Assembly: GCA_963707465.1 (NCBI GenBank)
Contig: CAVPQK010000028.1
Span: forward strand, 33,638 to 97,637
DNA from: Bryobacterales bacterium
Lineage (GTDB): Bacteria; Acidobacteriota; Terriglobia; Bryobacterales; Bryobacteraceae
Length of the DNA stretch: 64,000 nt
Direction of reading: 5' to 3'
The notes below the pieces were generated by a model. It ran no database searches, was not told the DNA's origin, and worked only from the letters and a program-made list of their open reading frames with translations. Within the stretch, counting starts at the first letter, position 1. Each line of letters starts with the position of its first letter. Below, piece by piece: positions 43,200 to 51,218 of this stretch. Made by a program: the position numbers and the translations under genes.

Positions 43200-46034
43200 A
43201 TGACCAGAATTGCCGACCTGCTGGCCCGCGATTTTTCGAGACCTATCGAAGAGTTCGTCAAGGTCGACAACCACGATCCGGATACTGTCTTCACCGAACT
43301 GACCGAATACATTGCGACGGATCGTATCAAAGCCGAGTACGAGCGCCTGTTTTCCGCGATGGCGGCCGCTTCGAAATCGTCCAGCGAAAACATTGGAGTC
43401 TGGATTTCCGGATTCTTCGGCTCAGGCAAATCCTCCTTCGCGAAGAACCTCGGGTATGTTCTGGCGAACCGCGAAGTACATGGCGCCCCCGCCAGTTCGC
43501 TTTTCCTGAAGCAGGTGGAATCCAAGCGGGTCACCGAGTGCGTGGAGTTCCTCAATGCAGCGGTCCCGTACGAGACCTTCATGTTCGACGTTCAGGTGGA
43601 GCTGCCGGTCGAAATCAAGCCGGAGCAGCTCATTGAAGCCATGTACCGGGTCCTGCTGCGCGATCTTGATTATGCGGAAGACCCCGATATCGCGGAGCTG
43701 GAGATTGAACTCGAAAAAGAGGGCAAGCTGGCGGCGTTTCAGGATCTCTGTCAGGCGGAATACCAGGAAGAGTGGAGAAAGCTCCGCAAAAGCAGCCGGA
43801 AACTTGAAGGCACCAGCGCCTTGCTTCACCGGCTCGATCCCCGAAGTTACCCCGCGACTGACACGTGGTTGAACATGGTTACGGCCCGGCCTTCAAGAAC
43901 CTTGAGTGTCAAAGACCTGGTTGACAGGTCATTCGATCTATGCAACATCCGCCGTCACGGGAAGGCCTTCGCTTTCGTCCTGGACGAAATGGGCCAATTC
44001 GGCGAACGCCTCGGAAACCTGCTCGAAATCGTCGAACGGTTTGGCAGGGAAAGCCGTGAACGGTCGAACGCCGGGAACATCCCGGGGCCCGTGTGGATCA
44101 TCGTTACGGCCCGGCAAGATCTGGAAGAGATCGACAAGTACCTGGTAGCCAACTGCATCGACCTGCCCAAACCACAGGACCGTTTCAGGCACCAGATCGA
44201 CCTATCCTCGGCCGGCATCCGCGAGGTTGTCACCCGCCGCGTGTTGCGCAAGAAGGAGAGCCAGGAGATTATCCTCAGGAAGCTGTTCCGCGAACGCGGT
44301 GCGTCGCTCAATCAGAATGTCAGGTTGGAAAAGAGCTCCCGCCACACGGAGTTCGACGAAGAGCAGTTTGTCCACTCTTATCCTTACCTTCCGCATTTGA
44401 TCGACCTCTCGGTCGACATCATGGCGGGCATGCACGTACAACCCAATGCGTCAAAGTACGTCGACAGCAGCAACCGTTCCATCGTCAAGCAGTCTTTCGA
44501 AATGCTCACGTCGGACCTGACCCGGCTCGCCGATGAGCCCGTCTCCGTCCTCGTGAGCATCGACAAGATCTATGAGCTGGTGGAAGGAAATACTCCCTGG
44601 GAGAAGCGGAAGGACATACTCGACATTCGCCAACGCTACGACGACGACAAAGACTACCCTGGGATGGCATCGCGAGTGGCGAAGGCCATATGCCTCATGG
44701 AGTTTGCCCAGACGGACCTGCCGCGCACGACGAAGAACATCGCCGCATTGCTGGTCCAGCGTGTCACGGAGGCCCCACCCGCACTTGCGGTTGCGGGGAT
44801 CCTCGATCACCTGAAAGGGGCGCAGTATGTCCACGAGACCAAGGCCGGATGGAAGCTCTATGATTTCGATGAACTGCGTCGCACGGCGGCCGCCCTGGGA
44901 TGGCTGGGCAGATGGGTGGGAGGAGTCACTCCCCGGAAGCCGGGGTGGCAGAGCGGACTGATCCAATGGGTGAAGAAGCTGCTGGCTCGCTCGTTGAATT
45001 GGTATACGTGGCCATTGCGCCAATTCCATGACTCAGTAAGTCAATCGCTCCAGGAAACAATCGGCGCCCTTGACCACCTATCGATGAACATGGTTGCCCT
45101 GGACCGCCATTCCATGAACATGGTGGCCCACGAGCGCAATCCGACCGATAGATTCGCGCCTCAGTTGTTGGACCACCTTTCCATGAATAGAGTCGCGCTG
45201 GACCGCCTGTCGATGGACATGATTGCCCTTGAAGCGCGGCTGGCGCGGGTGGAGAAGACCAGGGCCAGGATGGAAACGGACTGGGACCAGGAGAAAACGG
45301 CTTACATTATCGGACTCTTTGGCACCGGACGCCGGTATATCAATGAACTGATGCTCGAGCACATTGGAGAGAGGGCGAAATATTTTAGGGATACGATCGC
45401 CTTGCATCCAGGTCCGACACCGATGATCTACAGCGGCCATGCCACGGTGAGGCATCTGTCTCGCGCGCAAGAGCCGCCGGCTGTAATGGGCCGTATCTTA
45501 GAAGCGGTCAGCTCCGGATTCGCCACTGTGATTTTCGTCTATCGTCACCCTCTCGATTCGTTGTTGACGAATTGGATTTGGTGGCGGACATACATTCGCG
45601 AGAACGTCTTGATTTCTGGAATCTCGCAGGTTTATCAGAACACGGACGATCTATGTGCCGAGTTGGAGCGGAACTTTCTCGACTTCAAAGCCTTTGCCGA
45701 AGGCGACCCCGATTTTTTTGCGGGCATGCCAGGCCCGCCATTTCTGTCTTTTAGGCAGTTTGTCGAGGAAACCGATCTTCATTTCCAAGCCGCCCCGCTC
45801 ACGTTGCGCCTGGAGGACTTCATGATCGATCCTTGCCAAGAGTTTTCCAAGATCGCCGAACTCATGTCAGTCCCTCTCGAGCGGAGCCGCTTACGTATTG
45901 TCCCCCCGAAAACCAAGCCCTATGGCTATTTGGCTGTTAAAGACAAAGTCCCTCAATTCAGAGACTTTATTGACGGGCTGAATGCGGAGACAAAAGGGCG
46001 GATTGAGAAGCTCGGCTATGATATGACTGTGTAA
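43200..46034 (+). CDS. Fusion protein: BrxC/PglY-like P-loop ATPase region + decapeptide-repeat linker + sulfotransferase-like C-terminal domain
   Basis: 944 aa. The N-terminus (IADLLARDFSRPIEEFVKVD...TEYIATDRI...GVWISGFFGSGKSSFAKNLGYVL) matches my recollection of the BREX BrxC N-terminus and Walker A. Walker B-like AFAFVLDEMGQF. C-terminal ~250 aa carry IIGLFGTGRRY (5'-PSB-like loop) and VYRHPLDSLLT (R-x-P-x-D-x-x-x-S/T, 3'-PB-like), as in PAPS-dependent sulfotransferases. Confidence 0.7.
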   Translation: MTRIADLLARDFSRPIEEFVKVDNHDPDTVFTELTEYIATDRIKAEYERLFSAMAAASKSSSENIGVWISGFFGSGKSSFAKNLGYVLANREVHGAPASSLFLKQVESKRVTECVEFLNAAVPYETFMFDVQVELPVEIKPEQLIEAMYRVLLRDLDYAEDPDIAELEIELEKEGKLAAFQDLCQAEYQEEWRKLRKSSRKLEGTSALLHRLDPRSYPATDTWLNMVTARPSRTLSVKDLVDRSFDLCNIRRHGKAFAFVLDEMGQFGERLGNLLEIVERFGRESRERSNAGNIPGPVWIIVTARQDLEEIDKYLVANCIDLPKPQDRFRHQIDLSSAGIREVVTRRVLRKKESQEIILRKLFRERGASLNQNVRLEKSSRHTEFDEEQFVHSYPYLPHLIDLSVDIMAGMHVQPNASKYVDSSNRSIVKQSFEMLTSDLTRLADEPVSVLVSIDKIYELVEGNTPWEKRKDILDIRQRYDDDKDYPGMASRVAKAICLMEFAQTDLPRTTKNIAALLVQRVTEAPPALAVAGILDHLKGAQYVHETKAGWKLYDFDELRRTAAALGWLGRWVGGVTPRKPGWQSGLIQWVKKLLARSLNWYTWPLRQFHDSVSQSLQETIGALDHLSMNMVALDRHSMNMVAHERNPTDRFAPQLLDHLSMNRVALDRLSMDMIALEARLARVEKTRARMETDWDQEKTAYIIGLFGTGRRYINELMLEHIGERAKYFRDTIALHPGPTPMIYSGHATVRHLSRAQEPPAVMGRILEAVSSGFATVIFVYRHPLDSLLTNWIWWRTYIRENVLISGISQVYQNTDDLCAELERNFLDFKAFAEGDPDFFAGMPGPPFLSFRQFVEETDLHFQAAPLTLRLEDFMIDPCQEFSKIAELMSVPLERSRLRIVPPKTKPYGYLAVKDKVPQFRDFIDGLNAETKGRIEKLGYDMTV
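45069..45227 (+). repeat. In-frame 30-nt (decapeptide) repeats inside the BrxC-like fusion gene
   Basis: LDHLSMNMVA (45069..45098), LDRHSMNMVA (45099..45128), 13-aa spacer, LDHLSMNRVA (45168..45197), LDRLSMDMIA (45198..45227). Visible at the nucleotide level (ctKgaccRcc..tcSatgRa..). Confidence 0.9.
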
Positions 46035-46038
46035 GCGC

Positions 46039-51100: not shown

Positions 51101-51218
51101 CTCCCGCCTCTGGTGTGTTGGTCAGCACAGAAGTCTTCAAGCGTTCATGGAGCTGCCGGTCAGCGGCAATCCGGTCCCGGGGTAAATGTGTCAATTGTGT
51201 TAACGATGATGAGCGCAC
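48192..51218 (-). CDS. Bifunctional protein: CysC-like (adenylylsulfate-kinase-family) kinase fused to PPDK/PEP-synthase-like ATP-grasp + phosphohistidine (PEP-utilizer) enzyme
   Basis: N-terminal [27 protein letters not shown] (APS-kinase family). Middle [28 protein letters not shown] (PPDK_N). C-terminal [29 protein letters not shown] (swivelling phospho-His domain). The exact start is uncertain. Confidence 0.8.
   Translation of the reverse strand: [1008 protein letters not shown]

Follow-up and report, generated by a model that had tools for sequence, protein, structure and literature searches.

The 64,000-nucleotide stretch analysed here (the window), from a 97.6-kb metagenome contig of a Bryobacterales bacterium (CAVPQK010000028.1), contains an 8-kb locus in which a fusion gene on the forward strand converges on a minus-strand operon of four translationally coupled genes for an activated phosphoramidate donor. 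In the fusion protein, the N-terminal half of BrxC, the ATPase of the phage-exclusion system BREX, is followed by a coiled coil and then by a C-terminal domain (CTD) for which a sulfotransferase fold is predicted. From its sequence and modelled structure, the CTD is a strong candidate for the enzyme that attaches the phosphoramidate group, and members of its family stand beside the same pathway in dozens of related genomes. We favour, with moderate confidence, a role as a (methyl)phosphoramidyl transferase whose donor would be bound as sulfotransferases bind 3′-phosphoadenosine 5′-phosphosulfate (PAPS). The whole prediction rests on sequence, predicted structure and gene neighbourhood.

Linkage of the C-terminal domain to the donor pathway

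CTD genes and the phosphoramidate donor pathway occur together far more often than chance would allow, whichever of the two is taken as the anchor. The CTD-anchored set comprises 79 loci from GTDB species representatives, with the glutamine kinase of the pathway counted if it lies within 10 kb. It does so in 44 of the 79 loci, and in 32 of the 47 that have at least 7 kb on both flanks; by our own arithmetic, for a single-copy gene in a genome of about 5 Mb, chance would give about 0.4% per locus. Several loci scored as lacking the kinase end inside the donor operon. The convergent layout of the window is shared by 38 of the 44 kinase-bearing loci.

The kinase-anchored set comes from an independent metagenome scan, limited to loci with adequate flanks. 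At a kinase identity of at least 75%, the CTD is present in 14 of 16 loci, with one of the remaining two carrying a gene of a second sulfotransferase-type family, here called ST492, and the other carrying neither. At 60–75% identity, ST492 stands beside the pathway in all five loci, in most of them directly after the methyltransferase gene. In total, 20 of the 21 metagenome loci have a CTD or a Sulfotransfer_3-type gene next to the pathway. The first-pass annotation of the window had proposed a co-occurrence check, and the counts from the two anchors are its outcome.

The CTD associates with the entire five-function pathway rather than with the kinase alone, and unfused CTD genes adjoin it as often as fused ones. 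The caveat that the two gene sets are only convergent is removed by L089/L090, because the fusion gene is co-directional with the pathway there: one strand carries the genes for the kinase/glutamine kinase, hydrolase, cytidylyltransferase, methyltransferase, ST492, the BrxC–CTD fusion and a PF04185 phosphoesterase.

In the window, the stop codon of the fusion gene lies 4 bp from that of the operon (TAA-GCGC-CTA), and the convergent spacing of 46034 to 46039 given in the first-pass annotation is confirmed. The closest relatives of the locus occur in metagenome-assembled genomes (MAGs) of peat and soil Acidobacteriota (Bryobacterales, Terriglobia). The GC content of the fusion gene is 53–59%, with its minimum in the CTD part, compared with 62–70% in the donor operon; the remainder of the window is also higher. 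Such a difference may point to a separate evolutionary history or to another codon usage. The features of the locus are as follows (aa, amino acids; APS, adenosine 5′-phosphosulfate; GATase, glutamine amidotransferase; ORF, open reading frame; PB, phosphate-binding; PEP, phosphoenolpyruvate; PSB, phosphosulfate-binding; SAM, S-adenosylmethionine).

43200..46034, + strand: fusion gene, 944 aa; BrxC N-terminal AAA+/winged helix-turn-helix (wHTH) half, coiled coil, sulfotransferase-fold domain
43200..44858, + strand: BrxC-type (ORC/Cdc6-clade) AAA+ ATPase and first winged helix, residues 1–553 (NF033441, PDB BrxC)
43410-43433, + strand: Walker A, residues 71–78 (conserved motif)
43974-43988, + strand: Walker B, residues 259–263 (conserved motif)
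44865..45269, + strand: coiled-coil linker, residues ~556–690 (long helices in the model; WYTxPLxxF motif)
45291..46031, + strand: CTD, predicted sulfotransferase-fold catalytic domain, residues ~698–944 (AlphaFold2 model, Foldseek)
45312-45338, + strand: 5′-PSB-like loop GLFGTGRRY, residues 705–713 (invariant columns; GLFGTGRxY in the family)
45438-45440, + strand: invariant His747 within SGH, residues 745–747 (invariant columns)
45540-45575, + strand: 3′-PB-like motif YRHPLDSLLTNW, residues 781–792 (invariant columns)
46039..46806, − strand: class-I SAM methyltransferase, candidate phosphoramidate O-methylase, 255 aa (Methyltransf_11, E 2e-18)
46820..47596, − strand: NTP_transf_3 nucleotidyltransferase, putative Cj1416 role (cytidylyltransferase), 258 aa (PF12804, E 4e-21)
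47593..48195, − strand: class-I GATase/Peptidase_C26 hydrolase, putative Cj1417 role, 200 aa (PF07722, E 6e-23; PF00117, E 7.5e-11)
48192..50540, − strand: glutamine-kinase-like part, PPDK_N ATP-grasp and PEP-utilizer His domain, putative Cj1418 role (PRK05849, Pfam)
50541..51140 (ORF possibly from 51218), − strand: APS-kinase-like domain, putative Cj1415 role (3′-kinase) (PF01583, E 3e-33)

At the level of family models, the donor operon belongs to the Campylobacter-type pathway. Its gene functions are those of the route to 3′-phospho-cytidine-5′-diphosphoramidate, from which Campylobacter jejuni decorates its capsule with O-methyl phosphoramidate (MeOPN) (PMC6429109, PMC3907429). The glutamine-kinase part matches NCBIfam PRK05849 at 922 bits (cut-off 501; E 2e-277) over positions 7–788 of 789. 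We take this model to correspond to Cj1418. The APS-kinase-like domain is fused to the N-terminus of the glutamine kinase in one protein of 982–1008 residues (48192–51140, or to 51218 from the first GTG). It passes NCBIfam PRK05541 (174 bits, cut-off 127), with the CysC equivalog models staying below their cut-offs. Since both activities reside in one polypeptide, they can be argued to serve one pathway. Taylor and Raushel are said to have described Cj1415 in 2018 as a cytidine diphosphoramidate kinase.

The hydrolase gene overlaps both of its neighbours by 4 bp, and the methyltransferase is conserved beside the pathway in related loci. LicC, a CTP:phosphocholine cytidylyltransferase, is the best PDB match of the nucleotidyltransferase; the PDB sequence search with the donor enzymes found only generic relatives of the LicC, GATase and APS-kinase kinds, and neither Cj1416 nor Cj1417 of Campylobacter was among them. 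By Pfam and NCBIfam matches, gene calls and overlapping genes, the donor-pathway operon of the first-pass annotation is real. Two ORFs within this region are of a different kind. The 407-residue ORF at 46820–48043 (−) over-extends the 258-residue nucleotidyltransferase and conceals the 200-residue amidotransferase in another frame, and the 303-residue ORF at 49467–50378 (+) lies opposite the glutamine-kinase gene as an antisense shadow ORF.

Beyond the pathway, the only conserved neighbours are an alternative methyltransferase, a metallophosphoesterase-like protein with a Tat signal, and MacB-type permeases. The metallophosphoesterase-like protein stands beside the module of CTD and pathway in 17 of the 79 genome loci and in six metagenome loci (e.g. 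L096, L097, L112, L124); at L016:2538–3743 it has about 400 residues, a Tat-like signal peptide and a GNHD metallophosphoesterase-type motif, and no Pfam match. A PF04185 phosphoesterase gene follows the fusion in L005 and in L089/L090. These two kinds of neighbour could serve to remove or turn over the modification, or to scavenge phosphorus. Pfam enrichment over 144 genes around orphan CTD copies gave no dominant theme.

The predicted sulfotransferase fold and its candidate reaction

The CTD belongs to an unnamed family with 347 relatives at E ≤1e-3 among 1.84 billion representative sequences; ten distant catalytic-domain matches, checked by source name, were all unnamed hypothetical proteins, and none was from Campylobacter. 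The entire fusion architecture of 900–1010 residues is conserved in more than 120 protein clusters (55–82% identity, 100% coverage), so the fusion is not an artefact of assembly or of a frameshift. These domain matches and the shared architecture uphold the fusion gene of the first-pass annotation in every particular. The fusion is a minority form, with the BrxC half present in 23 of the 79 CTD loci. Commoner forms, 60–83% identical, consist of the CTD only (about 250–300 residues) or have about 420 residues with an N-terminal coiled coil. The fusion junction falls both on the BrxC domain boundary and where the 420-residue form begins. A rough neighbour-joining tree groups the fused forms, although unfused ones are scattered among them. 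A fusion and a CTD-only paralogue can also form a tandem pair, and some contigs carry two full-length fusions. In L005, L018 and L021/L088, a CTD-only paralogue of about 256–300 residues, 68% identical to the window CTD, lies directly downstream of the fusion; the donor pathway is not nearby in these tandem loci.

The coiled coil contains LDHLSMNMVA-type repeats encoded by a 30-bp tandem repeat (45066–45129, 2.1 copies, 82% matches). The repeat number differs between aligned homologues, and the length of the coiled coil therefore appears variable. This segment aligns with the N-terminus of the stand-alone 420-residue homologues, and the same module is attached to many class-I methyltransferases.

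We propose that the CTD belongs to the sulfotransferase superfamily as a highly divergent member. Its AlphaFold2 model (predicted local distance difference test, pLDDT, 82.9; predicted template-modelling score, pTM, 0.81) was compared with the PDB by Foldseek, and the top 49 consecutive matches are all PAPS-dependent sulfotransferases, with a best E of 1e-5 at probability 1.0. The best of these are small-molecule SULTs and plant SOTs. The motifs GLFGTGRxY, SGH and YRHPLDSLLTNW follow one another in the order seen in sulfotransferases, an assignment made by eye, without residue-level superposition. The first-pass annotation had predicted a sulfotransferase-type fold with motifs for the 5′-group and the 3′-phosphate. 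The model and its 49 matches bear out the fold, and the motifs, assigned as stated, are present and invariant in the family.

The likeness to PAPS sulfotransferases (SULT, TPST, CurM-ST, TEG) comprises the same predicted fold and, as assigned by eye, a corresponding order of a P-loop-like donor loop, a histidine, an RxPxD...S/T 3′-phosphate motif and an RxED...DP motif. Unlike these enzymes, the CTD gives no significant sequence-profile match and has GTGR in the loop instead of K/R-S-G-T-T, and the linkage of its gene is to a pathway for a cytidine-based phosphoramidate donor, not to sulfate activation. TEG12/Teg14 are the sole PDB sequences other than coiled coils that the family profile touches. 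Profile–profile comparison of the CTD with the 413-residue Smac51 proteins was not significant.

The 8-kb locus may represent a self-contained phosphoramidate-modification module. Glutamine would be phosphorylated on its amide nitrogen, as in the C. jejuni route; the product would be cytidylylated and the glutamate removed to yield CDP-amidate, which would then be 3′-phosphorylated to 3′-phospho-CDP-amidate. The methyltransferase would add an O-methyl group at some stage. In the CTD, the P-loop-like GxxGTGR loop and the RxPxDxxxT motif are predicted to hold the PAPS-like 3′-phospho-CDP-amidate, whose (methyl)phosphoramidate the domain would pass to a hydroxyl group on an acceptor in the cytoplasm, releasing cytidine 3′,5′-bisphosphate. 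The coiled coil and, in the 23 CTD loci that have it, the BrxC-type AAA+ domain probably bring the enzyme into ATP-dependent oligomers or regulate it.

Several observations weigh against this assignment. The Foldseek TM-scores of the CTD are modest (0.35–0.43). The domain itself (~250 residues) matches no Pfam family even at E ≤10, and linker and CTD together match none in Pfam or NCBIfam. Its profile reached the TEG12/Teg14 sulfotransferases among PDB sequences only below threshold (E ~1), and profile–profile alignment (hhalign) with ST492 and with an Azospirillum sulfotransferase was not significant. About 30% of the well-flanked CTD loci have no pathway within the nearby region. Some pathway loci carry other candidate transferases (a TagF-like protein, a CDP-alcohol phosphatidyltransferase or a sulfatase-family protein), and a sulfotransferase gene beside an APS-kinase-like gene can also be read as an ordinary sulfation pair. 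The sequences all come from metagenomes or MAGs.

Among the candidate acceptors, we rank a glycan or glycoconjugate precursor first. Distant loci with pathway and sulfotransferase genes lie inside nucleotide-sugar and polysaccharide clusters together with CysQ-like phosphatases, which could recycle the nucleotide by-product, and a heptose/glycosyltransferase/Wzy cluster contains one stand-alone CTD paralogue. A glycan acceptor is weakly supported because the acidobacterial module is not inside glycan clusters and the neighbours of the orphan CTD copies are heterogeneous.

Transfer of the same group to a small molecule, a lipid or a protein, as a natural-product or protein modification, is possible, if clearly less probable. 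We keep it as the main rival because glycan genes are not conserved around the acidobacterial module, because a secreted metallophosphoesterase-like or PF04185 phosphoesterase gene recurs beside it, and because the best fold matches of the CTD are to small-molecule SULTs and plant SOTs. The relatives of ST492 are likewise the CurM ST and protein-tyrosine sulfotransferases. The window also encodes a MacB-type exporter, an EryCIII-like glycosyltransferase, a SnoaL protein and a ceramidase, and on an Agrobacterium vitis plasmid the pathway has LysE exporters and tRNA-ligase-like genes in a natural-product-like context. Against these points stand the glycan-cluster setting of the distant loci and of the one CTD paralogue, the coiled-coil module, which by our own inference is typical of polymer-modifying enzymes, and the capsular sugars that are the sole characterised use of the donor (PMC3907429).

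An ordinary PAPS sulfotransferase would also suit the predicted fold of the CTD: the APS-kinase-like domain would make PAPS, and the locus would place two separate decorations on one product. The sulfotransferase genes that abut the APS-kinase-like gene in L154, L155 and L166, and the CysDN genes beside the pathway on a Vibrio plasmid, point the same way. We nevertheless consider it improbable, because ATP sulfurylase was not found in the window or in the acidobacterial loci, because the kinase domain forms one translated product with the glutamine kinase and passes PRK05541, not the CysC equivalog cut-offs, because its Campylobacter counterpart Cj1415 is reportedly a cytidine diphosphoramidate kinase, and because the CTD travels with all five functions of the pathway.

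The BrxC-type ATPase half

The N-terminal ~550 residues of the fusion protein are homologous to BrxC (PglY). Residues 4–553 match NCBIfam NF033441 over profile positions 2–541 of 1173 (E 3e-107; 360 bits, cut-off 400), and the PADLOC BrxC match covers positions 6–543 of 1180 (E 4e-110), every PADLOC BrxC model being matched only in its N-terminal half. The PDB BrxC chains 9zll, 9zn5 and 9zdx align over residues 3–528 at E ~6e-37, and the predicted model contains the wHTH hairpin at residues 544–553. The Walker A, Walker B and sensor-2 motifs are kept. Among 46 full-length fusions, the Walker A lysine is found in 43, the Walker B aspartate in 46 with E/D in 45, and the sensor-2 arginine in 41; the arginine finger is partly degenerate, with K at the first finger in 36 and R at the second in 17.

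The full-length BrxC architecture of about 1200 residues is not present, since the match ends at profile position 541, below the NF033441 cut-off. Unlike BrxC, the fusion protein has no central alpha+beta domain, second winged helix-turn-helix (wHTH2), BrxC coiled coil or C-terminal dimerisation domain, and it has no BREX partner genes. PglZ was found neither among the genes within 10 kb on each side nor elsewhere in the window, and PglX/BrxX, or a PAPS-reductase-type modifier in its place, was absent, as were BrxA, BrxB and BrxL, from the gene lists of the window, L001, L088 and L089. BREX families were also absent from the enrichment of the 144 neighbour genes, and the donor pathway is the sole conserved gene set across 80 loci.

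In BrxC itself, residues 1–551 comprise the AAA+ domain and the first winged helix, form ATP-bridged dimers and possibly heptamers, and bind BrxB:PglZ; this fragment alone did not bind DNA in vitro (PMC13326643). By analogy, the AAA+ half of the fusion most plausibly serves the coiled-coil enzyme through ATP-dependent oligomerisation or regulation. The presence of a BrxC AAA+ domain does not turn the locus into a BREX system. The interpretation offered in the first-pass annotation holds for the sulfotransferase-type fold and for the pathway linkage. A reading as a ‘BREX-like’ system does not hold, with only half of BrxC present, the partner genes not found, and the ATPase confined to 23 of the 79 CTD loci. 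The nucleic-acid target that it raised as a speculation has no positive evidence, because the equivalent BrxC fragment is not DNA-binding in vitro (PMC13326643).

It is accordingly very unlikely that the fusion is a BREX-related defence or epigenetic marker, in which the AAA+ part loads DNA or senses infection and the transferase marks a nucleic acid or a phage component. The strong homology to the BrxC N-terminal domain with its conserved ATPase motifs, the GC content of the fusion gene below that of its surroundings, and the common paralogue arrays and tandem copies would suit such a role, as would the reported modulation of phage infection by MeOPN on the Campylobacter capsule. Against it, PglZ, PglX, BrxA, BrxB, BrxL, nucleases and other defence genes are not conserved nearby, most CTD genes lack the ATPase although they are 60–80% identical and adjoin the pathway to the same degree, and the alpha+beta and wHTH2 parts of BrxC that bind DNA are missing. 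The flanking genes are ordinary chromosomal ones with no defence-island context. The remaining window holds pqqBCDE, a hybrid histidine kinase, TonB-type receptors, a MacB exporter and ClpB. A separate observation, unrelated to the finding, is the row for pyrroloquinoline quinone biosynthesis (pqqB-pqqC-pqqD-pqqE-like, 28835–31831, +), with Lactamase_B_2, TENA_THI-4, PqqD and radical SAM/SPASM matches.

Just as improbable is a model in which the AAA+-fused forms are ATP-driven rings or filaments that thread or patrol a polymer (DNA, RNA or a nascent glycan) and stamp it with (methyl)phosphoramidate as a self-mark or phage barrier; if true, this would be a BREX-derived marking machine using P–N chemistry that is not known from nucleic acids, and the stand-alone forms would be housekeeping enzymes.

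Other transferases at the pathway and relation to known systems

The phosphoramidyl transferase assignment of the CTD can be set beside other transferase families found at the pathway. ST492 (L089:8322–9800) is a protein of about 450–490 residues with a hydrophobic C-terminal tail, unrelated in sequence to the CTD. It passes the Pfam Sulfotransfer_3 cut-off, and its profile matches the CurM ST (E 4e-9) and TPST1 (E 9e-9). It adjoins the pathway in a sister lineage, with homologues in L020, L050, L125, L132, L133, L140–L144 and L159, and ST492-like proteins occur in L152, L161, L165 and L170. In L089 it stands alongside the BrxC–CTD fusion. The distribution of ST492 and the CTD looks like replacement between sulfotransferase-type families at the same pathway.

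Among the ORFs of distant loci, sulfotransferases were detected by Pfam scan. In L154, L155 and L166, the kinase-like gene is immediately preceded by a Sulfotransfer_1/3 gene, and the plasmid cluster of Azospirillum lipoferum 4B holds two Sulfotransfer_1 genes with the pathway. At least three unrelated sulfotransferase-type families recur beside the kinase-containing pathway. On the Azospirillum plasmid AZO_p6, an 846-residue protein (L086:6647–9187) annotated as ‘adenylyl-sulfate kinase’ has its kinase domain only at residues 658–801. Its N-terminus shows sulfotransferase-like motifs by eye (FIHFDLPRAAGDS..., VRNPFDWYISSYYW); Sulfotransfer_2 matched it only at E 0.19, and no PDB match was obtained. 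From these sequence features, the protein may be a transferase-like domain fused to the pathway kinase.

Pathway variants without a Pfam-detectable kinase have other transferase types as neighbours: Vibrio and Pseudohalocynthiibacter have a TagF-like protein, A. vitis a CDP-alcohol phosphatidyltransferase. In this small sample, the other transferases of the kinase-less variants fit the idea that the 3′-phosphate and a PAPS-type site go together. The A. vitis genes are on plasmid pRvVAT039a (L093, 8911–14000), where a glutamine kinase, a hydrolase and a cytidylyltransferase, with no kinase, are followed by a LysE exporter and the CDP-alcohol phosphatidyltransferase, flanked by tRNA-ligase-related and TauD genes. 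This arrangement looks like a different, perhaps small-molecule, use of CDP-amidate.

The C. jejuni MeOPN locus, cj1415–cj1422, has the same donor functions as the operon described here (glutamine kinase, hydrolase, cytidylyltransferase, 3′-kinase and methyltransferase), and in both systems the transferase genes, candidate ones here, are linked to the pathway, are paralogous and lie in part elsewhere in the genome (for Campylobacter, PMC3907429). Unlike in C. jejuni, the kinase and the glutamine kinase form one polypeptide here, there is one methyltransferase rather than two, the module lies outside a capsule locus, and the candidate transferase has a predicted sulfotransferase fold with a coiled coil and sometimes an AAA+ domain. 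The C. jejuni proteins Cj1421 and Cj1422 were first annotated as sugar transferases. As far as could be determined, the candidate transferase is new, Cj1421 and Cj1422 being known to us by their annotation, not by their sequence. If they hold a sulfotransferase-like domain, the CTD would be an addition to a family already known, not an analogue.

WbdD of Escherichia coli O9a, a coiled-coil protein with kinase and methyltransferase activity, terminates the O-antigen chain with a methyl phosphate cap. The fusion protein may resemble it by analogy, as an enzyme with a coiled coil that would place a methylated phosphoryl group; unlike for WbdD, ABC-transporter O-antigen genes are not linked to the locus, and the enzyme fold differs. 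No paper found in our literature search links the phosphoramidate pathway to a sulfotransferase fold or connects phosphoramidate chemistry to Acidobacteriota, and a 2026 survey of BREX diversity does not mention a BrxC–sulfotransferase fusion (PMC12839542).

The association described here bears on how the phosphoramidate group is transferred. To our knowledge, enzymatic phosphoramidate transfer has not been worked out, and the purpose of the 3′-phosphate on the donor is unexplained. The decoration steps in Campylobacter were still listed as future work in 2025 (PMC12409886). Our analysis suggests a testable answer, in which a PAPS-type site holds the donor by its 3′-phosphate and evolution has repeatedly turned sulfotransferase folds into phosphoramidyl transferases. 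The loci also indicate that this rare P–N chemistry is not confined to Campylobacter but widespread among Acidobacteriota of peat and soil and in further phyla, and that the AAA+ module of BrxC has been put to use outside phage defence.

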